Assembly (NCBI GenBank): GCA_964538875.1
Contig: CAZIHO010000051.1
Coordinates: 1 to 22,883, forward strand
Origin: an uncultured Chromatiaceae bacterium
Lineage (GTDB): Bacteria > Pseudomonadota > Gammaproteobacteria > Chromatiales > Chromatiaceae
Length of the DNA stretch: 22,883 bases
Direction: 5' to 3'
Below, piece by piece: positions 2,556-20,063 of this stretch. The position numbers were made by a program, and so were the translations under genes. The notes under the pieces are model-generated. The model saw only the letters and a program-made list of their open reading frames with translations. It was not told where the DNA came from and ran no database searches. Positions within the stretch are counted from its first letter, which is position 1; each line of letters begins with the position of its first letter.

Positions 2556-4790
2556 TCATTTGGCCGGCGCCGCCGGTGTTAGCAACCGTCCCCGGCGACG
2601 CATCAGGGCCGCATCCAGCAGCATACGCCCGGCCCAGCGGTACACGTTGAATTCCATAACCAACGCTCGCATCAACTTCATCCGGTCCCGCTGCTCGGCC
2701 ACGGGCATGGTCATTGCCAGGTGCAAGGCGGCGGCGCATTGGTCCGCATCGTAGGGATTGACGATCAGGGCCTCCGGCAACTCCCTGGCAGCGCCAGTAA
2801 ACTGCGACAGGATCAGCACCCCCAATTCGTCATCATGGGCGGCCACATACTCCTTGGCGACCAGGTTCATGCCATCGTGGAGGCTGCTGACGAAACAGAA
2901 ATCCGCTGCCCGGTAGTATTCATACACCTGAACCGGCTGATGTTGCTCGGCTTTCAGGATGATGGGCGGCATACCGCCTTGGGCGAAGCGTGCGTTGATC
3001 TGTTGGGCCAGGGCCTCGACCCGGGCTTGATGATCTTGGTATTCACCGATCCGGGAGCGCGTCGGAGCGGCGATTTGGATGAAGCTAAAGCGGCCAATCC
3101 ACTCCGGGCGCAGCTCCAGCAGGCGCTCGATGGCCCGGAACCGTTCCACGATACCCTTGGTGTAATCGAGCCGATCCACGCCCACCCCTAGAAGGCAATC
3201 CGCGGGCAGTCCGTTTTGTGTGCGCAACAGCGGGCGGCAGGTCTCCAACGGCCTGGCCAAGCTGGCGTGTAGCGGCGGCCACTCGATGGAAATGGGATAA
3301 CGGCGCACTGCGGTCAGCTTGCCACCAAAGGAGACGGTGTGGGACTCACGATCCACCCGTGCTTCCAGACAGCGATCCACGGTATCCACAAAGTTGTTGC
3401 AATGGAACATGGTGTGGAACCCCAAGATGCTGCTGCCTAGCAAACCGTCCATGATCTCTGGGCCCCAGGGGCAAATGGCGAAGGACTCAGGATTGGGCCA
3501 GGGAATATGCCAGAAGGTGATAATGGTCGCCTCCGGCAGCCGCTCCCGGATCATGCGGGGCGCCAAGGCAAAATGGTAATCCTGAATCAGCACGATGGGA
3601 TCCGGGGTCTTGGCGGTGGCCACCACCGCGTCGGCGAAAATGCGGTTTACCTCGACGTAATAGGCCCAATCCTCTGACCGGAAGGTGGGCCGCACATGGG
3701 CAATGTGGCAGAGGGGCCACAACCCTTCATTTGAGAAACCATAATAATAACCAGTTTCCTGCTCCGGCGTCAGCCAGATTCGCCGCAGGCAATAGACCGG
3801 GTCATCCGGCGGAACCGCGACTTGGTCCCGTGCGTCCACGGTCTCCCGGTCAGCACTGCCGCTGCCGTGGGCGATCCAAACGCCGGAACACGCCCGCATT
3901 ACCGGCTCCATGGCTGTCACCAGGCCGCTGGCCGGACGGTGCACCTCGACCTGACCCTCCCGGCGCAGGTGAATATAGGGTTCCCGGTTAGACACCAAGA
4001 TAACGTCGTCGCCCCGCAATTCTCCCCGGAGAATGGCCCGCAAGGCCTCTGGGGTCCAGGTAATCTGGCTTTCATCCCGGGACCGGTAGCTCGATTCCAA
4101 TTCCCTCAACAACCGCTGCAGATCCCGGGCGATGGGCTGGAATTCGGGGGCGGGAGGAACCGCAGCGAGGCTGGCCTGGGGACGCCGGACCAGCCCCTCG
4201 CCACGAAGAATGGCGCGCATACCCGCAACCCAGCCGCGCCAAGACAACTGGGCGATCACCACGGTAATGAGTGACACCAGCAGGGTGACACCAAGAAACA
4301 CGTAAAACACATATTGCCGCGTCTCGGCGCTGCGCCGTCCGACGAAGCTCATGTCATGGACGATGACCAGTTGTGCCGCAGGTGCCGATGCCGTGGCCAT
4401 GGATTTAACGGCCAGGTGCAATAGGCCATGGGTATTCTCGAGGATTGGACGGCTTTGTTCACGCCAGCGCGACAGGTCGTTACAGTGAATCTCAGACGGC
4501 AATGACGCGGTCGCGATCATAGGGCCTTCGGGTCCAGCGCAATAAGCGAGGGCGAATAAGCGTTCATCCAGGGTGATATTGCTTAGAAACGCCGTGACCT
4601 TGGCCGGCGCCTGCGAGGCTAGCCACAAGGTGAGGGGTTCCCTGATCGCGTTGCTGATCAGATCAGCACGAATATCCAGATCGCGCTCGAACCAGTGCAA
4701 AGTCAACCGGTCTATCAGCGGTACCAGTCCGTACGCGACAAGGCCTAAGGCAAGGATCAAAGGCACAATGAATCGTAACGATATTCGCAT
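2556..4790 (-). CDS. otsA: Trehalose-6-phosphate synthase (GT20), 744 aa, with a ~255-aa N-terminal extension carrying two predicted TM helices.
   Basis: The C-terminal ~480 aa align with E. coli OtsA from '[11 protein letters not shown]' (E. coli 'RLVVVSNRIAPP') through '[15 protein letters not shown]' (E. coli '[17 protein letters not shown]'). The N-terminus has hydrophobic stretches '[20 protein letters not shown]' (aa 7-26) and '[23 protein letters not shown]' (aa ~160-183). A GGGAGGAGG-like RBS (ggaggagggg on the coding strand) lies just upstream of the ATG at 4790. Confidence 0.85.
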
Positions 4791-5000
4791 AGTGGTCCCC
4801 TCCTCCTTTTATTCACATCGTCAGCCGCGCACGATTCCGAAGAAAAACTTGTTGACGGCAACCTAACAGAGGGTAAAGCCTTACCCGCCTTCCGCTTCGG
4901 ACCCTCCAGATTCCGGTGGCGGTTTTTTCGCATACCCTAGGGTAGTAAAGAAAAAAATAGTGCATTGAAATCCCGTTATAGCCCCTTCTGCCTGAGTTGG
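4791..5000 (-). promoter_or_regulatory. Probable promoter / 5'-UTR region of the otsA-otsB-GH15 operon.
   Basis: Non-coding, locally AT-richer sequence ('agtaaagaaaaaaatagtgcattgaaatc') immediately upstream of the otsA start. No -35/-10 boxes could be assigned with confidence. Confidence 0.3.
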
Positions 5001-5690
5001 ACCGCACGGACACAGACCTGTTCTGTCACTGGACCCGGCAAGAGCCGGCGTCCAACAAACACCTGCCCCCGCCAGCCACTGGTGCTGGTAGACGCCCAGC
5101 TAGGGACGAACCAATCTGGCCGTCTGCAAAGGGCGTCGACTAGGCGGACCGCTAACTGGTTGTCATAGGCTATTTTCCTTGGTGCTCTGGGACATTTGGC
5201 TGGACCTGCAACCGGTCGAGCCGTTGGAATATTCCCGGCCGGAGCGCTGGTCGGGGACTGGAGCGGTAAGGCGATTATTCAGCGCTACCCACTTGGTTTT
5301 CATAAAAATTTCTAAAGGCCGCAAACCAGCCAGAACTGGCACCTATAGCCGCCAATACCGATGAACGGTGCCGGGAATCCCGCATATCCCTTTCTCAGGC
5401 GGGGATCCTTGGGCAAACCAAGAGCACTCACTTCCGCCGCAGCTCCCTGACGCTGGCAATAGGAAGTTATGGTCGGTTGACTATCCGGGGACCGGGAATG
5501 ATCTGGGCTTAGTCAGGATCATTCGGTGTTGGCAGCAGGCTGGTTTCCGGTGGATTGCGAATCGGTTCCAGTTCATGCCACAGACGCCGGTGTTGGGCAA
5601 GACTGGTGGCCGCGGACCTGGGCAGCATCCGGACTTCAGGCGCAGCCGCGCCGGTTGCGAGCAATCAATCACTTATGTCACGAGCGGCGC

Positions 5691-6091
5691 ATGGACTTGC
5701 TCAGTTCGGCCGCCTGGGACCTATCCGCCCTGCCGGAACCGGCCCGGACCCTGGTGGCGGAGTTAGTGGCGCATCCGGCGGCTGGGGACCGGGCCTCCTG
5801 TAGCCTGAATTCCCAGGCCGGTCGCTTCGATTTTCGGGCGGAACGCCTGCAGAATCGCCGGGGCTCCGGCGGCCGGATCCTGGTCAACATCAGTCACGCG
5901 GAACCCAGGGATCTGAGTGTGGCCCGGCGCTTGGCGGATTGGTCCCTGGCACCCCAGGAGAAGCGGAGGCGTTGGGCGTGAAGGTGGGAACCCTGAAGAT
6001 GTACATCAACCAGCTCAAGGCCAAGTTGGAAATCGAGTCACGAGAGGCGTTCATCGGCCAACTGTTGGCGGAACCCCCGTCCGATCCTTGA
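5691..6091 (+). pseudogene. Degraded small HTH regulator (LuxR / sigma-70 region-4-like helix-turn-helix) interrupted by a frame change near 5960.
   Basis: Frame ending at stop 6089-6091 reads 'EAEALGVKVGTLKMYINQLKAKLEIESREAFIGQLL'. This resembles the recognition-helix segment of LuxR/sigma70_r4 HTH domains ('IAE.LGIS.GTVK..L..A..KL'). The upstream part ('MDLLSSAAWDLS...ISHAEPRDLSVARRLADWSLAPQE') is in a different frame. No intact ORF joins them. Confidence 0.25.
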
Positions 6092-6445
6092 GGCGCGGCG
6101 CGGACGGGTTGGGTTCCCGGTCGAGGCGTCCTGAATGGTCCGGTGCACCCCATCCCTACCGCGCCCAGCCAGCACGGCCAGCGTCCACAGCCCGCCCGGG
6201 GGGAAAGCGCGCCATCGCCAGGCAACTCACTAGCCGGGGTGCGCCGATACCCCGCGCCGCTCATTTGGGCAATAACCACCCCATCAGCCTTATCCATGGT
6301 TTGTAATGGGCTGCCTATCCGTTATCCGGTGGATTTTTTGCTGGCCAAATGGTCATTGACACATTTTCAATGGGCCATTCCGTGAAAATATTTCTTTAGT
6401 GTTCATGTGCATCATTTACGGTTTTGCTACCCATGGGTCACCCGC

Positions 6446-6464
6446 TTGGGGCACAGTATGTGCG
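6446..6464 (+). promoter_or_regulatory. Possible sigma-54 (-24/-12) promoter-like motif upstream of the MVP-like operon.
   Basis: 'tgGGGCACagtatGTGCg' has GG-N10-GC spacing resembling the TGGCAC-N5-TTGCW consensus, with one mismatch in each element. It lies ~165 nt upstream of the MVP start. It could be chance in GC-rich DNA. Confidence 0.15.
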
Positions 6465-6630
6465 GGACCTGTGCAACGCCCGGCAGGCATGTCCCCAGGG
6501 TTGGCCGGTCAAGCATCCATTTGGTTGCAACCCAATGGGCTGGGGATCCGGCAGCAGCCTCTGGCGGTGACGGGCTTCGACCCCGGACCTGGCCGACCTT
6601 TTACGTCAAAGAGTTTGAAGGGGATTCAAG

Positions 6631-9165
6631 ATGCCAAGAGAAGACGATCGTCCGATGCGCGAAACGGAACTGGTGCTGCCCCCCGGCGTCTTTGCCTTCG
6701 TACTAGATAGCACTAAGGGTAATATAAATACCTATTGCGGCCCCATCAAGCAAAGCCTGAGTAATACCGACCAATTGGTCGTCTATAACGCCGATAGCCG
6801 CCGCTTCCAACCGGCGGCCAATTTCAGCCAGGCGATTCAGACCCATATCACCGCCGCTAAGGGGCACTACGTCATCCTGCAAAACCCGTCCCGGGATGGG
6901 CATCATCCCGAACCGGGCAAAGCGGAGATGTTGCCCCCGAATTTCCTCAAGACCGGGGAAACCGAGAACCTGCCTGGCCCCCAATCCTTTCCCCTCTGGC
7001 CCACCCAGACCGCTGAGGTGGTGTTGGGCCACCAATTGCGTTCTAACCAGTATCTATTGGTGCGGGTTTATGACGAGGAAGGCGCCCGGACCAATTGGAA
7101 CCAGGGCGTCATCAAGCTGGCGGAAACCGCCGGCGTCGGCAATGCGCCCGCCACCTCGGTGCTGGGCATCGATCCCACCGGCCTGTTCACCGGCCAATTG
7201 CTCATCATCATGGGGAATAAGGTCAGTTTCTATATTCCCCCGAGCGGCATCGAGGTCTTACCGGAGAGCGGCGGCACCGAGCCCCGCTATGTGAGGGACG
7301 CGGTGACCCTGGAGCGGCTGGAGTATTGCATCCTGTTGGATGAAAGCGGCCTCAAGCGTTACTTGATCGGCCCGGAAGTGGTCTTTCCCAAACCCACCGA
7401 GCAGTTCGTGATCCGGGACGGCAAGCGCAAATACCGGGCCTATGAATTGACCGACATCAGCGGCCTGCACATCAAGGTCATCGCCGACTACCAAGAACCG
7501 GACGGCGCCTGGCATAAGGCCGGGGACGAACTCTTCATCACCGGCGCCAGCCAGTCGATTTATTATCCCCGGTCGGAACACGCCATCATCAGCTATGGCG
7601 ACCGGGAACTCTATTACGCCATTGCCATTCCCTCCGGGGAAGCCCGCTACCTGATGAACCGTCGCACCGGCGACATTCGCTTGGTGCGGGGTCCGGCGGT
7701 CTATCTGCCCAATCCCATCGATGAGGTGGTGGTCAAGCGCATCCTGAGCGATAGCGAATGCGGCATGTATTTTCCCGGCAATGGCGCGGTGCTGGACTAC
7801 AACCGGTCCCTGCGGACCCGAGGTGCGGGTGGGGCGGCGCCCCTGGAAATGCCACCGGACGGCCCCCGCCCGCCCCCACTCCCGGCGGCGCCAGCCGTCG
7901 CCCTCCGGGAACTCGCTGGCCCTGGTGCCTTCGGCGACACCCTGCAACGGGTAGCGACCTACACTCCCCCACGCACCATCACGCTGGACACCAAGTTCGA
8001 GGGGGCGGTGACCATCGATGTCTGGTCCGGGTACGCGGTGCAGGTGGTGAATCGCCAAGGGGAACGCCGGGTGGTGACCGGCCCCCAAACGGTCTTGCTG
8101 GCCTATGACGAGATCCTGGAACCCCTGGCCCTGAGCATGGGCACTCCCAAGGACCCGGCCCGCACCCTCAAGACCGTCTATCTCCGGGTCCGCTCCAATG
8201 CGGTCAGCGACCGGGTCAGCGTCAAAACCCGGGACCTGGTCCCCCTCACCGTGCAGTTGAAGTACCTGGTGCGGTTCGACGGTGATCAAGCGAGCTGGTT
8301 CAACATCGACAACTACATCCAATACCTTTGCGACCATTTGCGCTCCCTGATCGGCAATCAGGTGCGGGCGATCGGGGTGCTGGAGTTCTATTTTTCCGCC
8401 GCCACCCTGCTGCGGGACCTGGTGTTGGGCGCCAAGGCCCAGGACGGCAGCCGGCCGTTGCGGCATTTTGCGGAAAACGGCATGACAGTCTATGACCTGG
8501 AGGTGATTAGCATCTCCATCGACGATGACCGCATCGACCAACTGCTGCACCAATCCCAGCAAGAGAATCTGCTCAACACCATCGAGTTGGAACGGCAACA
8601 GCGCCTGCATCTGCTCACTGCCGGCCAGGAACAGGCCAAGCGCCAGATCGAGCAGGAGCGGGCCACTACCCAGGCCCTCACTCAACAGCTGTTGCTGGAC
8701 ATTAGCGAAGGTCAGGACCGGCTGGCCATGGCGGAAATTCAATCCCAGACGAGCCGGGAACAGCAACGGGCCAACGGGACCCTGGAAGTACAGGCGATCG
8801 ACAGCCGCATCGCCGCAATGCGGCTGGCGGAGCGCCAGGCGCAGTTGGAAAGCGAGGCCCATTTTGCCCACCTGGCCCTGGAACAGCGCCTGCGGGAGAG
8901 CGATGCCCAGGCCCGCCACCTCACCGAGCAAATGGCGGCCATCCAACCTGCCCTGGTAGAGGCGCTGACCGCCATCGCCGCCACCGGCACCCTGCAATCC
9001 CTAGCGGAACATCTGGCGCCCCTGAGCCTGGTAAGGGACCAAAGTCTGGCGGCCACCCTGGAGCAGATGTTCCGGGGCACCCCCCTGGCGGGGCTGTTGG
9101 ACAACCTGCGTCAACTGGGCCAGGGACGGCTGTTGCAAGGAGAGGACCCGGCCGATGCCAGCTAG
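6631..9165 (+). CDS. Major vault protein (MVP)-like protein, 844 aa.
   Basis: The N-terminus 'ELVLPPGVFAFVLDSTKGNINTYCGPIKQSL...VVYNADSRRFQPA...KGHYVILQNPSRDG...GPQSFPLWPTQTAEVV' parallels human MVP '[32 protein letters not shown]...VLFAPMRMVTVPP...PRHYCTVANPVSRDAQG...AQDPFPLYPGEV'. Repeated ~55-aa MVP-repeat-like segments follow, and the Gln/Glu/Arg-rich C-terminal helical region resembles the MVP cap-helix. An AAGGGG RBS lies 8 nt upstream of the ATG. Confidence 0.85.
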   Translation: MPREDDRPMRETELVLPPGVFAFVLDSTKGNINTYCGPIKQSLSNTDQLVVYNADSRRFQPAANFSQAIQTHITAAKGHYVILQNPSRDGHHPEPGKAEMLPPNFLKTGETENLPGPQSFPLWPTQTAEVVLGHQLRSNQYLLVRVYDEEGARTNWNQGVIKLAETAGVGNAPATSVLGIDPTGLFTGQLLIIMGNKVSFYIPPSGIEVLPESGGTEPRYVRDAVTLERLEYCILLDESGLKRYLIGPEVVFPKPTEQFVIRDGKRKYRAYELTDISGLHIKVIADYQEPDGAWHKAGDELFITGASQSIYYPRSEHAIISYGDRELYYAIAIPSGEARYLMNRRTGDIRLVRGPAVYLPNPIDEVVVKRILSDSECGMYFPGNGAVLDYNRSLRTRGAGGAAPLEMPPDGPRPPPLPAAPAVALRELAGPGAFGDTLQRVATYTPPRTITLDTKFEGAVTIDVWSGYAVQVVNRQGERRVVTGPQTVLLAYDEILEPLALSMGTPKDPARTLKTVYLRVRSNAVSDRVSVKTRDLVPLTVQLKYLVRFDGDQASWFNIDNYIQYLCDHLRSLIGNQVRAIGVLEFYFSAATLLRDLVLGAKAQDGSRPLRHFAENGMTVYDLEVISISIDDDRIDQLLHQSQQENLLNTIELERQQRLHLLTAGQEQAKRQIEQERATTQALTQQLLLDISEGQDRLAMAEIQSQTSREQQRANGTLEVQAIDSRIAAMRLAERQAQLESEAHFAHLALEQRLRESDAQARHLTEQMAAIQPALVEALTAIAATGTLQSLAEHLAPLSLVRDQSLAATLEQMFRGTPLAGLLDNLRQLGQGRLLQGEDPADAS

Positions 9166-11782
9166 CCTTAGCACCCAGCCCTTCACGCTGATCCTGGCGG
9201 ACAGCCTCACCAACGACTTCATGGGCGGCGGGGCGTTCGAGCAAACCGGAGTACATATCGGCCAGCGGGACGTGGAGCGGCTGATGGGGGCCGGCAGCGC
9301 GGCCGGCAACGGCCCCCTGCCCACTTTCTTGAGTCAGGCGGTGGCAGCCCGCCGCCAAGGCCGGCCCATCGGCCTGATCCTGGTGCGGGATTGCCACGAC
9401 CCCAAAGACCCGGACCAACTGCCGGAACTGCTCCGCTATGGCCGTCATAACGTCCGGGGCGAACAAGGCGCCGCCTTTTTGCCCTTCCTCAAGCCCCTGC
9501 TAAGTGCGGCCGCCATCCTGGAAACCCGCTCCCTGTCCCTGCCCCTCAAATCTCTGCGGCGGGTGACGCGACGCCTGTTAGGACAGGATCTACTGACCCT
9601 GAACGGGGAACAGCGGCGGCTGCTACGCTGGGTGCTGGTGGGGTGCCACACGGACAAGCGGATCCTGGGCACCGCCAATCTGTTGCGCAACGTGTTGGAA
9701 TTTCCCAATGTCGCGGTCTGCCCCCATCTGGTGGGGAGCAGTAACCACGAGGCCCACCTGGCCAGCTTGCAGGTGGCTCTGCCGGATGCCTTGGTGCAGG
9801 TGTTTCCCGATCTCCGCGCCCTGCTGGGGTTCGCCGGCCTGGCGAAAAAGCCGTTCCGCCAGTTCGACTGCCGGGGCGCGGCGCTGGGGCCACCCGGCGT
9901 GATCCAGTCCTTGAACGCGGACCAGAGGCACATCCTGGAGCTGGCTTTTCTCCGTTGCTCCCAGGTGACCCTGCAACCTTTGAGCGGCGGATTTAGCGGC
10001 AGTCTGCTGTGGCTGGCGCGGCGCCAGATCGACGGCGTGGCGGGGGCGCCGGTGGTGGTCAAGATCGACCGGCATGGGGCTATGCAAAAGGAATTGGAAG
10101 GCTACGACCGGGTCAAGGCCATCTTTGGTAGTCAGGTGCCCAGCTTCGGTACGCCCATCTCGTCCGGCGGTCATACCGGCATCCTCATGGAACTGGCCTC
10201 CCGTTCCGGCACGCCCCACACCCTGCAATGGCTGTTTGAGCAGGCGGTGGAACAGCGCGACCCGGACCAATTCCTAGCCCCGCTCCGGGCCAGCCTGGAA
10301 TTGCTGCACCAGCGCCTGTACCGGCCCACCTTGCGCCGGTGCCGCTTCTCGCCCTGGCAGCGGCTCGGGCTGTCCGCGCCCCAGCAATGGGAGTGGCTCA
10401 GGGAGAATATCGGCCACATCACCAACGACGGCTGGCAAGGCGGCCCGATCCGGCTGACGCCGGATCTGGTGTTGGAGGACTTCACCGCCCTGTTCCAGCA
10501 ACTGGCCGCCGACTCCCATTGGCTGCCCGGCGCCCATTGCCTTGGCCATGGAGATCTGAACCTGGCCAACATCATCCTGGATGACCTGGCCAATGTCTGG
10601 TTCATCGACTGGACCCACGCCGGGTTGCTGCCCGTGGAATTGGATCTGGCCAAGCTGGAAAACGACATCAAGCTGGTGGTCAGCAAGGGGCTGGCCCACC
10701 AGGACCTGGGGGACCTCCTGATCCTGGAGCGTCTGCTGCTGGAACAGCGGCTACCCCTGCCCCTGGAGGAAGCGGCCAAGCGGTTGCCGGGGTTGGCCAG
10801 CGACCCGCACCTGGCCTTGGTTTACCAATCCGTGGCCGCCATCCGCCAGCGATACGCGGACCTGCATCCAGAGCAGGATGACACCCTGTATCAAATCGCC
10901 TTGCTGCGTTATGCCACCCATACCCTCAGTTTCGATGCCCGGCGCGGGCGGGGCGAGTGCAGCTTGGAGCAACTGCGACACGCCCTGGGCACCGTGCATC
11001 TGCTGGTGCAACAACTGGCTAGGGGCGATTTTCACCGGCTGACCCCCGCCGTGCGGCCCGACTCCTACCCGGACCGGCAACGGCTACCCCGGGAACTGGC
11101 ACCCTGGCCAGTGCCCTGTCCGGACTATCAGCCCCCCTTCCATGAGGACCCCATCCTGTCCCACAGCGACTGGGCTGATCCCCTGGACATGGACTGGGCG
11201 CCGCCGGATGACGCCGACCCTTGGCGGGACCCCCTGGGCCGTCCCCTCAATCCACGGGGCCGCACCGGCTTGGCGGGACGGGGGCTGCTGGGCCGCTGGG
11301 GCGCCAACCGGGCGGTGGATCCGGTTATCACCCGGATCAATCCCGGTAACGGCCGGCTGGAACTGCTGCTGGGCCGCCGTTGGGACACCGGCGAAAGCTC
11401 CCTGCCAGGCTGTATGCGGCTGGCGGGGGAAAGCGAGGCCCAGGCCCTGGTCCGCTGCCTGCGGCTCAAGGCCGGGATTTCCCTGCCCATGAAAGCGGGC
11501 AGCCGGGTCTACCGGGGGCCGGTGGACGATTTCCGGGACACGGACCACGCCTGGATCGAAAGCAGCACCTGGAGTTGGCATTTGACCGGCAAGGCGGCCC
11601 GGCGCCTGTACTTCCGGGGCGGCGGCGGTCTCGGCGAACTGGGCTGGACGGGCATCAGCCCCGAACTGCTGCGGAGCCTGTTCGCGGGCCACGCGGACCT
11701 GGTACGGTGCGCCCTGCGCTGGCGGGCCGCCCGCCGCGAGCCCGGCGCCGATCAGATGGAACAGCTTTTACGGGAGAGTTGA
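9155..11782 (+). CDS. Three-domain protein, 875 aa: N-terminal isochorismatase/cysteine-hydrolase-like domain, central APH/protein-kinase-like phosphotransferase domain, C-terminal NUDT9-type Nudix (ADP-ribose-binding/pyrophosphatase-like) domain.
   Basis: N-terminal domain: '[11 protein letters not shown]...[13 protein letters not shown]...[13 protein letters not shown]...[18 protein letters not shown]' follows the isochorismatase/PncA pattern (VIDxQNDF ... HCVxGTxGAxF ... VVGIATDxCV). Middle domain: '[30 protein letters not shown]' is the HGD catalytic loop plus the DFG-equivalent of APH/choline-kinase-fold enzymes. C-terminal domain: '[29 protein letters not shown]' and '[25 protein letters not shown]' closely match human NUDT9 ('[29 protein letters not shown]', '[25 protein letters not shown]'). 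The start overlaps the MVP stop by 11 nt, with an AGGAGA RBS upstream. Confidence 0.8.
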   Translation: [875 protein letters not shown]

Positions 11783-11789
11783 CCTGACC

Positions 11790-12353
11790 TTGGAACGAAC
11801 CTCCACCACCCACCCCATCCGCATCGACTGGGTGTCCCTGGGCGGCCGGGGCCGCATCGGCATGACCTTCTGTCCCGGCAAGGTCCAGGACGACGCCTGG
11901 ACCGGCCGCTGGCGCCGGGATCTAGGCACCGATCTGCTGGCCATCCGCCGCTGGGGGTGCCGCCTGCTGCTGTCCCTGATCGAGGAACCGGAATACCTGG
12001 AATTAGGCGTTCCAAATCTGGGAGCAGAGGCCCAGCGCTACGGCTTGGCCTGGCAGCCGCTGCCCATCCGGGATCGATGCGCCCCGGACCAGCGTTTCGA
12101 GGCGGCCTGGCCCCAGCTATGGCCACAGGTGCAAGAGGTATTAGAGCAGCGGGGAGACCTGGTGCTGCACTGCAAAGGCGGACTGGGACGCACCGGAACC
12201 CTGGCCGCCTGCCTGCTGGTCAGTTTCGGCGAGTCACCGGCCAGCGCCCTGGGCCGGGTGCGTCTGGCCCGTCCGGGAACGGTGGAAACCCCGGCCCAGG
12301 AAGCCTATGTGCGGGCTTGGCCCGCCAGGTGGGCAAGTCTGGGCCAAAAATAA
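11790..12353 (+). CDS. CDKN3/KAP-like dual-specificity protein phosphatase (CX5R active site), 187 aa, TTG start.
   Basis: Active-site loop 'LHCKGGLGRTGTLAACLLVS' matches the CX5R signature (HCxxGxGR[ST]G). It is especially close to human CDKN3 'IHCYGGLGRSCLVAACLLLY'. A GGGAGAG RBS lies 11 nt upstream of the TTG, and the gene begins 7 nt after the previous stop. Confidence 0.7.
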   Translation: MERTSTTHPIRIDWVSLGGRGRIGMTFCPGKVQDDAWTGRWRRDLGTDLLAIRRWGCRLLLSLIEEPEYLELGVPNLGAEAQRYGLAWQPLPIRDRCAPDQRFEAAWPQLWPQVQEVLEQRGDLVLHCKGGLGRTGTLAACLLVSFGESPASALGRVRLARPGTVETPAQEAYVRAWPARWASLGQK

Positions 12354-12388
12354 GTCAGGCCCATCCTGGATGCGCCGGGATCAGACCA

Positions 12389-12690
12389 GATCCACCCGGC
12401 TGCCGTTCCATTGGACCGCCCCGGTCCCGGCCCTCGTACACCCGGGAGCCTGGCGCACGGCTGCCAATCAGTACCCATGTCCCAGCGGTTGGGATAGGGT
12501 TTCCAGGCGCCTTCGATGCCGCTGGTGGTGGCGCAACCCCCCAGGCCAGACCTGCTCACCATCTCCAAACTGCCCGGCGATGCTGTTACCCGCATCATCA
12601 GCCGGCACTATGCCCACCTGTGCCACAACACCCTGAAAGCTGCCGTCACCAATCGGCCCAGCTTGGGGCATCAGGCCGAAACCAAAAGGA
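12389..12690 (-). pseudogene. katG: Catalase-peroxidase (katG) gene fragment, internally deleted and frameshifted.
   Basis: DNA is ~88% identical to two separate parts of the intact katG in this window. Segment 12389-12480 matches katG 17925-18025 (C-terminal lobe, 'DMGTDWQP...'). Segment 12472-12560 matches katG 19018-19095 (N-terminal lobe, '[11 protein letters not shown]...WDMG'). The two are joined at a shared 'cccatgtcc' (DMG) junction. An 8-nt indel ('tgccccgg') and further indels break the frame. Confidence 0.65.
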
Positions 12691-12788
12691 AGCCAGACCC
12701 ACGGTCTGCACGTGCAAGCGCAGACGTGCCCTGCAAGGGGATGGGCGCGGAGCGGGAACGCGCTGGCGGGAGTGGCATCCGACGACGG

Positions 12789-13070
12789 ATAGGAAATCCA
12801 ACCGGCCCAGGAAACCATCCCTTTTTGTTGTTTATGATCAGATAGTTAGCGAGCACCCGGATGTAGGTTTAGTAGGCTGGAGGCACCTGCCAAAGCCTCC
12901 GGTAAGAATCTGGCGGCAGGTTTTTAGCGGTTGGGAAGCAGACGGGGAACCGCTTGCGGAATCTAACGCAAGCTCAATCCAGCTTCGCACCAGGTGGCCT
13001 CACAGAACTCTCGGTTAGTATGCCGGTGCCTCGGCTGCGGAACCGCTTACCAACTGCCGGTCTGGTCGAA
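12789..13070. repeat. 282-bp repeat element, copy 1 (no terminal inverted repeats; probable non-autonomous mobile element).
   Basis: Direct sequence comparison shows ~93% identity to 14198-14480 over the full length, in the same orientation. Contains conserved hairpins ('ctggaggc-acctgccaaa-gcctccgg', 'gcttgcg-gaatctaa-cgcaagc'). Confidence 0.85.
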
Positions 13071-13121
13071 TTGGCCGACGACTCGGCCGAGGCCGTGTTT
13101 GCCAGGATCAAGGGGCGGTGA
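13071..13121 (+). pseudogene. 3'-terminal remnant (~16 codons) of an antitoxin gene (TIGR02574-like 'addiction module component'), truncated by the upstream repeat.
   Basis: Frame reads '...LVELADDSAEAVFARIKGR*', with TGA overlapping the GTG start of the downstream ParE-like gene (GTGA). The '...IPAEEVFARLRAR'-type C-terminus is typical of antitoxins paired with the RFPY-type RelE/ParE toxins. The match to the repeat consensus ends at exactly 13070. Confidence 0.35.
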
Positions 13122-13412
13122 GGATTCGCGTCCTCTCCCGCGCCGAGGAAGAATTTGTTGAAGCGGTCAAGATACAACAATGAGCGTCCCAGACTTGGCC
13201 ACGAGTACATTGAGGAGGTGCAGGCCGTCTTCGACCGCATTCATGCCTTCCCCGACCCATGCCCGATCTTTTCCGTCCGTGCGCGTCGCTGCCTCGTCAG
13301 GCGTTTCCCGTATCCTATCCTCTACCAAGTCCGCGCCGACCGCATCCTCGTTCTCGCCATCATGCACCTCAAGCGTGACCCCAATGCCTGGCGCCAACGG
13401 GCAACCAACTGA
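13118..13412 (+). pseudogene. RelE/ParE-family toxin gene (~98 codons) with a +1 frameshift near 13171.
   Basis: N-terminal frame: 'VRIRVLSRAEEEFVEAVK', then premature stop at 13181. The rest is in the -2 frame: 'YNNERPRLGHEYIEEVQAVFDRIHAFPDP...VRRFPYPILYQVRADRILVLAIMHLKRDPNAWRQR'. Together they match the ~97-aa RelE/ParE toxins ('YRIRVLPRAE..L.EI..YY......LG..FL.EV......I...P........VRRAPVRRFPYGVFYRV.GD.VVVLAVYHTRRDP..W'). A single extra 'a' in 'aag A tac aac' creates the shift. Confidence 0.6.
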
Positions 13413-13631
13413 GCCGTCTCGTATCGCAGCACCGATAACTTCGGTTGATCGTTCCCGCACGGGAAGCGACTCTTGGGATTGGAGCTTATGGATACTGCTC
13501 CGCCCGCTTCACCCGCTTGTAGAGATCCTTCTCACGGGGTTCCAAGGGCGTAGCCGGGCAGGGGTTGAGGACCTCCACCCTGCGGTTGGCGTTGTACTGG
13601 ACTGGACCACCACCCGCGGGGCGGGTCTACC

Positions 13632-14108
13632 CTATGGCTTCTTCAGCGGATCGTTGGCGACCTTGGGGTCCAGGTAATCGATCAGCGCCACGAGGCCGCC
13701 CTTCAAGGCGTAGACGTTACTGAAGCCGATGTCCCGCAGGGCCACGGCGATCAGGGTGCAGCGCAGTCCCTGCTGGCAAACTACCAGGACCTTCTTGTCG
13801 GTGGGGATCCGCGCGAGATTGTCCGGTTGAAACACCTCGTTCATCTGCATGGACAAGGTATCCGGGTTACCGATACCGAGCACGCGGCGTTCCGCTGGCG
13901 TACGCACATCCAGTATCACCACGGACTCGCCGGCCTTGATCCAGTTGACCAGCGTTTCCGGGGGTATCCTGGCCAGGGCCTTGGGGGTATTGGCATCGGC
14001 GAAGGGGGCGAACAGCCCCTCGTACTGTTTGGCCTTGGTCGCGTCATAGGCACCGGCCGTGCCCATGAGCAGCATCAGCAGGGGCAGCATGAACAGGCGC
14101 CATTTCAT
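13632..14108 (-). CDS. Periplasmic single-domain rhodanese (sulfurtransferase), 158 aa, with signal peptide.
   Basis: N-terminal signal peptide 'MKWRLFMLPLLMLLMGTAGA'. Rhodanese active-site loop 'VVCQQGLRCTLIAVALRDIGFSNVYALKGG' (Cys in the CxxGxR loop). A GAGGAG RBS lies 7 nt upstream. Confidence 0.8.
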   Translation of the reverse strand: MKWRLFMLPLLMLLMGTAGAYDATKAKQYEGLFAPFADANTPKALARIPPETLVNWIKAGESVVILDVRTPAERRVLGIGNPDTLSMQMNEVFQPDNLARIPTDKKVLVVCQQGLRCTLIAVALRDIGFSNVYALKGGLVALIDYLDPKVANDPLKKP

Positions 14109-14197
14109 CTCGTTTCTCCTCAGTGAGCGGAATCAATCATCCGTAATTTTTGGCTATACCCGCCGGGGCAGGCACTTGCCATGATTTTTCGCAACAA

Positions 14198-14480
14198 ATA
14201 GGAAATCCAACCGGCCCAGGAAACCATCCCTTATGTTTCGTTTATGATCAGATACTTAGCGAGCACCCGGATGTAGGTTTAGTAGGCTGGAGGCACCTAC
14301 CAAAGCCTCTGGCAAGAATCTGGCGGCAGGCTTTTAGCGGTTGGGAGGCAGACGGGGAACCGCTTGCGGAATCTAACGCAAGCTCAATCCAGCTTCGCAC
14401 CAGGTGGCCTCACAGAGCTCTCGGTTAGTATGCCGGTGCCTCGGCTGAGGGACCGCTTACCAACTGACGGTCTGGTCAAA
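14198..14480. repeat. 282-bp repeat element, copy 2.
   Basis: ~93% identical to 12789-13070 in the same orientation. It lies immediately 3' of the IS91-family transposase C-terminal remnant on the minus strand. Confidence 0.85.
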
Positions 14481-14639
14481 CGGGAAGTCATGCTGCACTT
14501 CCCTGTGCAGCACCCTTCGGGCGGCCTAGGGCCGTGCAAACCGGCTTTCCTGCCGGTTGTTCAGGTTCAGGCTGGGCCAGGGGATCAAATGACGGCAAGG
14601 CTTGCGCGCCTGTCGCTGGTTGTCCCTCGCTTTCCTCCC

Positions 14640-14886
14640 ACCAAATAGGTGGCCCCCTGACCGGGGAGACCTTATGCGGATCGGTGGGCTGGCCGATGTG
14701 CTTCAGGATGCGGAGGACCGTTGAACCCTGGGGAACGAAGGCGATAATCCGCAGGTCAGCCGAGCAGTTCGGACAGGTGAGCGGCACCGACTCGTACAGA
14801 CGGGCCAAGAGAACGGCCCAGAGATACCGGGCCGGAGAGCGCCAGCACCCTCGTCGGCTAAGGAACTTAACTGCCCCGCTGACCAA
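14640..14886 (-). mobile_element. IS91-family (HUH rolling-circle) transposase, C-terminal remnant only.
   Basis: 'YLWAVLLARLYESVPLTCPNCSADLRIIAFVPQGSTVLRILKHIGQPTDPHKVSPVRGPP' matches the conserved C-terminus of IS91/IS801-type transposases ('LLARVFE.DVL.CP.CGG.MRIIAFIED..VI.KIL.HLGL......PP'). There is no upstream catalytic HUH/Y2 part. The ORF abuts the low-GC island. Confidence 0.55.

Positions 14887-17783: not shown

Positions 17784-20063
<2,280 letters not shown>

Follow-up and report, generated by a model that had tools for sequence, protein, structure and literature searches.

The locus at positions 13071–13412 of the window, which is the complete 22,883-bp NCBI contig analysed here, is the wreck of an ordinary ParE-type toxin-antitoxin (TA) pair beside a broken IS91-family element, and not a new kind of system. 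In the model that we favour, to which we give a probability of roughly 70%, one deletion running from the transposase gene (tnpA) into the antitoxin gene would have left behind a silenced or already dead toxin. The toxin has also lost 2 bp, and both changes were fixed before the sampled strains diverged. Judged by sequence, none of the three components (toxin, antitoxin tail and IS end) is a functional member of its family, each falling short of an intact gene. The decay of TA pairs beside IS debris is already well known, as are the families involved. What this analysis contributes is the case for a deletion rather than an insertion, a toxin lesion of −2 rather than +1, the exclusion of a sequencing error and the finding that the order of the two lesions is not recorded.

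A truncated antitoxin and a frameshifted toxin

The antitoxin remnant (13071–13121, plus strand) consists of the last 16 codons, LADDSAEAVFARIKGR, plus the stop. It is located directly upstream of the toxin, in the expected position, and its stop overlaps the toxin start in a GTGA (13118–13121) that is also conserved in the homologous loci, an arrangement like that of parDE modules. An earlier sequence-only reading had recognised the roughly 16 surviving codons and the overlap, and both were recovered here: the tail shares 10 of its 16 residues with the C-terminus of each of two intact partner antitoxins, LTDDAAEAMFDRINRR in L001 and LSDDSADAMFARVNRR in L005, each ending at the stop. In a tblastn search with permissive settings, the tail was also the top antitoxin match of the window (E 0.024).

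The closest intact toxins in a collection of 5.8 billion proteins, P0002 and P0003, are 98 aa long and 70–71% identical to the window toxin. Each of their contigs carries a 74-codon (74-aa) antitoxin gene upstream, with a stop that overlaps the toxin start by 4 nt. These intact partners lie above threshold for both PF09720 and TIGR02574 (42.7–44.2 bits, against a cut-off of 31.9). The 55-aa ORF that holds the window tail, in contrast, gave zero HMM matches and reached neither the TIGR02574 nor the PF09720 threshold; it keeps 16 of the 74 codons, the part forming the Pfam domain is gone, and no trace of the remaining 58 codons was found anywhere in the window. From the alignment of its last 16 residues with the C-termini of the intact partners, from its place directly upstream of the toxin with the GTGA overlap, and from the conserved C-terminal toxin-binding tail, the remnant derives from an antitoxin of the TIGR02574/PF09720 (Unstab_antitox) family, the "putative addiction module component".

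The toxin itself is divided between two frames. Its 5' segment (13118–13183, plus strand) starts at the GTG of the GTGA overlap and reads VRIRVLSRAEEEFVEAVK, followed by an out-of-frame IQQ and a stop. The 3' segment (13173–13412, plus strand), in the shifted frame, begins with YNNERPRLG, continues through RRFPYPILYQV and ends in HLKRDPNAWRQRATN, with its stop at 13412; gene callers render it as an 85-aa ORF (P0001) with a TTG start at 13155. Once the frame is repaired, the toxin obtains 32.4 bits on PF05016 ParE_toxin (cut-off 23 bits) over profile positions 2–88 of 89, equalling intact homologues at 32.8 and 29.9 bits, and it keeps the conserved PxLG, RRFPY and HxxRxPxxW motifs of ParE toxins.

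The family is large, with 1,668 representatives at E ≤ 1e-10 in an exhaustive search, and its relatives on plasmids bear the annotation type II RelE/ParE family toxin; no NCBIfam model matches the toxin or its homologues. A search of solved structures with the single toxin sequence gave no match, and a profile was needed. The profile of 61 family members matched the solved ParE toxins 8c26 ("Toxin ParE2", E 3.7e-11), 5cw7 ("Plasmid stabilization protein ParE", E 0.0012) and 3kxe ("parE-1"), with RelE matches much weaker (E 0.28 or worse; RelE 4v7k at E 0.28). This test of ParE against RelE applies to the homologue profile rather than to the window remnant. The earlier description of an RFPY-type RelE/ParE toxin holds as regards the superfamily, PF05016 and the retained RRFPY motif; within it, the ParE structures score well ahead of RelE.

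Taken together, the window toxin is best described as a predicted pseudogene of the ParE branch of PF05016 rather than a functional member. ParE/RelE toxins are encoded by an uninterrupted ORF of about 95–100 codons, which the window toxin lacks; unlike theirs, its ORF is interrupted after codon 18, where 2 bp are deleted, and it carries non-conservative changes at the conserved positions G25, W48 and G66. Of 31 conserved columns, the window copy deviates from the consensus in 5 (G25R, W48C and G66P among them), compared with 0–2 in its closest relatives and a family mean of 5.0. At the family mean, the 5 deviations say little about decay of the toxin beyond the frameshift. Other strains have an additional R-to-C replacement within RRFPY and, in the toxin tail, an I-to-F replacement.

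The frame breaks at 13172, within the string AAG-A-TAC (13169–13175, plus strand), and the original frame ends at codon 21 with a premature stop at 13181–13183. Intact loci read GAT CGC TAC or GAT CAC TAC at this site, and aligning the DNA with them leaves a 2-nt gap in the window (GTCAA--GATAC against GTAGATCGCTAC). At the protein level, 99% of 147 family members have a residue in the column between window residues K18 and Y19. What the toxin suffered is therefore a net 2-bp deletion and not a 1-bp insertion. The sequence-only reading had the two frames and the site right, but its single-base insertion gives way to a toxin that is one residue short in the alignments; −2 and +1 lesions are equivalent in their effect on the reading frame.

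That the frameshift is an error of sequencing or assembly, with an intact toxin behind it, had been raised earlier in the form of a homopolymer error at 13168–13173. We give this practically no weight. Beyond the general possibility, nothing speaks for it, the site is not a homopolymer run, and the same 25-nt string, GAAGCGGTCAAGATACAACAATGAG, is present in 8 other contigs, at least six of them independently assembled. The junction between the repeat and the antitoxin is likewise identical in at least six other contigs. The contigs with either feature come from several SRA runs and one JGI metagenome sample; SRR34317595, SRR30303861, SRR32054269 and JGI 3300045389 are among the samples that contain the lineage. 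Five of these contigs show 100% identity to the window from end to end, while L011, L012, L016 and L017 differ from it elsewhere and are thus clearly separate assemblies. The contigs that share the frameshift and the junction are short and end in repeats, as short-read assemblies would, and the most divergent strain is ~1% from the window in unique DNA.

A remnant that is not inert seems to us very improbable. It would require either that the 85-codon ORF gives an N-terminally truncated ParE or that a +1 ribosomal shift, for which a rare ATA codon in the toxin could be a candidate site, gives the full-length protein. The TTG at 13155 is preceded, 5 nt upstream, by the Shine-Dalgarno-like sequence GAGGA. 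If the remnant were active in this way, the lineage would be keeping an orphan ParE fragment without its cognate antitoxin. In annotation, P0001, the 85-aa "ParE", is best marked as a pseudogene.

The identity of the locus across strains is uninformative on selection, with a divergence of only about 1%. We considered an unusual conservation of the TA remnant and rejected it: L011 differs from the window at 2/337 positions in the remnant, 6/477 in the rhodanese gene and 2/219 in intergenic DNA, with no meaningful contrast among these rates.

The IS91/ISCR-type repeat and its junction with the antitoxin

The tail adjoins a direct repeat, which the sequence-only reading had correctly reported as 282 bp long; its two copies, A (12789–13070) and B (14198–14480), are 94% identical. 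With its full IS-derived sequence, copy A (12785–13075, minus strand) is a 5'-truncated IS91/ISCR-family element comprising the oriIS end and the 3' tip of tnpA. Its oriIS motif, GGTTGGATTTCCTAT plus CCGT, lies at 12785–12803 and its tnpA stop, TAA, at 13047–13049 (both minus strand), with the last 8–9 tnpA codons kept (QFDQTGSW and stop). Copy B (14194–14480, minus strand) holds the same oriIS region, with the tnpA stop at 14457–14459 and the last codons FDQTVSW.

Copy B lies directly 3' of an IS91-family transposase C-terminal remnant (14488–14886, minus strand) from which the catalytic part is absent. This ORF is 49% identical to residues 419–510 of a 519-aa IS91-family TnpA. Its relatives, among them named IS91-family transposases in Thiohalocapsa and Thiorhodovibrio, carry the PF04986 catalytic domain, for which the window remnant gave no match. 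Members of the TnpA family end in AQPEPDFxFDQxxxW, and the ending FDQT(V/G)SW with its TAA is encoded within the repeat; in strain L104 the tnpA frame continues into it without a break. At its outer end, the repeat reads GCCGGTTGGATTTCCTAT and then CCGT on the minus strand, 258 nt after the tnpA stop, and the region between the two is non-coding. Of 79 relatives taken from genomes, 60 have the same oriIS motif after their tnpA stop, mostly at a distance of about 200–250 nt, and it is also found on a Thiodictyon plasmid. With TnpA ending inside the repeat and an oriIS motif at its outer end, the repeat can be assigned as the oriIS-bearing 3' end, and so a remnant, of an IS91/ISCR-family rolling-circle element.

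The comparison with described elements is consistent with this assignment. Elements of the IS91 family have terIS upstream of tnpA and oriIS downstream of it, and make no target duplication (PMC13181058); the window element shares with them the lack of inverted repeats. Its terminal ...GGTTGGATTTCCTAT resembles the oriIS of ISCR27, GCGGTTGAACTTCCTATACC, found 236 bp after the stop (PMC8894482), and that of ISCR1, GTGGTTTATACTTCCTATACCC (PMC13023784). As in IS91, IS801, IS1294, ISCR1 and ISCR27, a Y2/HUH TnpA C-terminus is followed by a non-coding region, here of ~260 nt. Unlike full elements, both window copies are remnants without terIS or a catalytic domain: copy A keeps only about 9 tnpA codons, and copy B ~130 residues plus an insertion of 82 nt. 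The closest full-length IS relatives, from Chromatiaceae and other proteobacterial MAGs, are ~50–66% identical.

The repeat is not a known RNA gene: across the whole window, neither an Rfam scan at gathering thresholds nor a tRNA scan gave a match. Compared with plasmids by blastn, the repeat had no match, and exact 22-mers from its core gave zero matches in genome contigs (species representatives without the source lineage) and in metagenome contigs. The 282-bp repeat is best annotated as the oriIS end of an IS91-family element, and the motif GGTTGGATTTCCTATCC(G/T)T could help delimit a poorly catalogued IS91 subgroup in Chromatiaceae and related MAGs. As a separate observation, some IS91-family copies in L036 and L053 (Thiohalocapsa sp. 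PB-PSB1 chromosome) carry 2–3 tandem oriIS motifs, GGCTTGGATTTCCTATCCGT, downstream of tnpA, spaced about 40–80 nt apart.

The inner limit of the repeat is affected by the 82-nt insertion, which occupies the 3' end of the tnpA remnant beside copy B (14481–14562, minus strand). It folds into three hairpins (−39.3 kcal/mol in RNAfold); L023 and L024 have it and L104 does not. No second copy exists in the window, and the insertion may be a small REP- or MITE-like element. It is because of this insertion that the homology between the copies appears to stop at 13070/14480. Compared with the L104 tnpA allele, with which the junction sequence of copy A agrees, IS homology in copy A extends to 13075; the limits 12785–13075 rest on this allele and on the terminal CCGT. 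The tnpA remnant of L104 (2104–2333) is only 79% identical to that of the window (14561–14796), against 97% in the flanks, which suggests replacement or gene conversion by another IS copy.

The orientation of copy A is what indicates how the antitoxin was lost. The antitoxin tail is fused to the inner, truncated side of the copy, within the last 9–10 tnpA codons. Given the minus-strand orientation of the IS, tnpA would be expected to run rightwards from 13075, and the antitoxin tail is found there instead; the outer (oriIS) flank of the copy is occupied by a katG fragment and not by the 5' part of the antitoxin. With the tail on the IS interior and katG on the outer side, the antitoxin was not split by an insertion, and the earlier claim that the inserted repeat truncated it does not survive, the other 58 codons being absent from the window. 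A complete MITE-like unit inserted in the antitoxin was also considered, and rejected: the inner end of the repeat lies within tnpA coding sequence, and the 5' part of the antitoxin is not opposite. The sequence lost from tnpA, on the minus strand, and that lost from the antitoxin, on the plus strand, both belong to one interval, between tnpA codon −9 and antitoxin codon 58. A second deletion at this locus, in L023 and L024 (described below), is an event of comparable kind and speaks for the same reading. The microhomology at the junction amounts to 0–5 nt: the first 5 nt of the tail (TTGGC) can also be read as IS sequence, the value of 5 nt depending on an IS allele seen solely in another strain, L104.

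In the favoured model, an IS91/ISCR element on the minus strand would have adjoined the upstream side of a parDE-like operon in head-to-head orientation, and its oriIS end would have lain beside a katG paralogue. Of the two genes of the operon, linked by the GTGA overlap, one would have encoded a TIGR02574/PF09720 antitoxin (74 codons) and the other a ParE-family toxin (98 codons). One illegitimate deletion, at 0–5 nt of microhomology, would have extended from the last 9–10 tnpA codons to antitoxin codon 58, taking with it nearly all of tnpA, terIS, the upstream region of the operon and 58 antitoxin codons. What is left is an oriIS end without the rest of its element, joined to the last 16 antitoxin codons and the toxin. 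After codon 18 the toxin has also lost 2 bp, so that its original frame ends at codon 21, and both lesions became fixed before the sampled strains diverged by ~1%.

That a single deletion made the junction is argued from parsimony rather than observation, since the ancestral arrangement of an intact IS beside an intact TA pair was not found in any collection searched. An exact 21-mer from the antitoxin tail gave one match in metagenome contigs, an unrelated chance match, and no pre-deletion allele. In more general terms, a repeat at the broken edge of a gene is not necessarily an insertion, and the orientation of an IS91-family end can reveal the joint loss of transposase and antitoxin.

Order of the two lesions

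Both lesions are present in every sampled strain and are fixed in several assemblies, and no intermediate allele was found in any collection searched. The order of antitoxin loss and toxin frameshift is not recorded in the sequence. The proposal that two lesions disabled the pair stands in so far as both are real, one of them at the border of a mobile-element repeat, but its antitoxin-first order is unsupported: "antitoxin lost, toxin then inactivated" cannot be read from one end-state sequence.

TA operons of this kind carry their promoter upstream of the antitoxin gene, and a cell left with an active toxin but no antitoxin is arrested or dies too soon to acquire a second mutation. All that lay upstream of antitoxin codon 59, including the presumed promoter region, also went in the deletion, together with the translational coupling to the toxin. 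A crude consensus scan of 12300–14600, in G+C-rich DNA, predicted no sigma-70-type promoter. The toxin was probably silenced in the same step as the antitoxin deletion. Because its normal expression route was lost with the antitoxin, the frameshift need not be compensatory, contrary to the sequence-only reading, in which it was the expected compensatory lesion. We infer that the toxin was either already inactive, or silenced by the deletion with the frameshift as later neutral decay. With few independent signs of decay, as seen in a Pfam score equal to that of intact homologues and in deviations typical of the family, the frameshift could also be recent or selected.

Two orders of events can be weighed against the same observations. 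If a mobile-element event had removed the antitoxin from a still active toxin and the frameshift had then been selected as a rescue, both lesions would be accounted for, and a toxin nearly intact save for the frameshift, scoring as intact homologues do, would fit a quickly selected knockout. We consider this improbable: once the upstream region of the operon and the coupling were gone, new toxin synthesis should have stopped, an active toxin without its antitoxin would arrest or kill the cell first, as established TA biology holds, and the intermediate state is seen in no strain. The reverse order, with the toxin inactivated by the 2-bp deletion or by an earlier missense change (G25R, W48C or G66P) and a then dispensable antitoxin removed by the IS-adjacent deletion, is a tentative possibility that we take seriously, at somewhat less than even odds. 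By the same established biology, only this order avoids a lethal state at every step, and it is consistent with the excess of consensus departures over the closest relatives and with the R-to-C change in the RRFPY motif of other strains. Five departures, however, are the family average, and an intermediate allele is missing for this order too.

Neighbourhood and related strains

Just outside the oriIS end of copy A lies the katG pseudogene fragment (12384–12550, minus strand), an internal-deletion chimera. With the intact katG of the window (17784–19970) as reference, it joins KatG residues 293–318 (85% identical) to about 650–685, and the join was apparently made at the DMG motif, which is homologous between the two peroxidase domains. 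On the other side, an intact rhodanese-domain gene (13632–14108, minus strand) separates the TA remnant from IS copy B. Strain L105 has an orthologue of this gene, 87% identical, in an unrelated context, with homology limited to 13537–14194. The rhodanese gene (13632–14197 region, minus strand) is placed just outside oriIS-B and in the orientation of tnpA, a position at which ISCR1 drives genes from outward promoters (PMC6218425).

Strains L023 and L024 lack ~1.9 kb relative to the window (roughly 12303–14211 to 12304–14223, according to where the repeat is placed). The loss occurred between 12-nt direct repeats, TTCCTGGGCCGG, one in the oriIS-B region and one in a phosphatase gene; the repeat is found at 3626–3637 in L023 and 2847–2858 in L024, compared with 12292–12303 and 14212–14223 in the window. 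It takes the 3' end of the phosphatase gene, the katG fragment, copy A, the TA remnant, the rhodanese gene and the oriIS tip of copy B. The segment is thus evidently dispensable and deletion-prone. Since the oriIS tip and part of the phosphatase gene are gone as well, L023 and L024 are deletion derivatives and not empty sites.

The flanking of the TA remnant and rhodanese gene by direct repeats of the oriIS region leads to another possible origin, in which the junction formed elsewhere and a circular molecule with oriIS, the TA remnant and the rhodanese gene entered, by recombination, the oriIS region of an IS remnant already in place. Such circle recombination has been proposed for the ISCR1 complex integrons (PMC13023784). 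The 6% divergence between the repeat copies, against ~1% between strains, and the L105 rhodanese gene, with its unrelated context and its homology confined to 13537–14194, are both compatible with this idea. Neither a circular form nor a donor locus was seen, however, and the strains without the segment do not represent empty sites. A deletion from tnpA to the antitoxin would still be required to make the junction, and we regard the circle as an unlikely origin.

Directly to the left of the decayed region, at 6631–12353 (plus strand), lies a cluster of three genes. It is preceded by 1.8 kb (4790–6631), between trehalose-synthesis genes and the first gene of the cluster, that contains only short overlapping ORFs. 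Its products are an 844-aa Major Vault Protein (MVP)-like protein with shoulder and repeat domains, an 875-aa TCAD9 protein (ternary-complex-associated domain) and a PTP-SAK phosphatase of 187 aa. The cluster resembles a bacterial conflict system and is probably of greater interest than the TA wreck.
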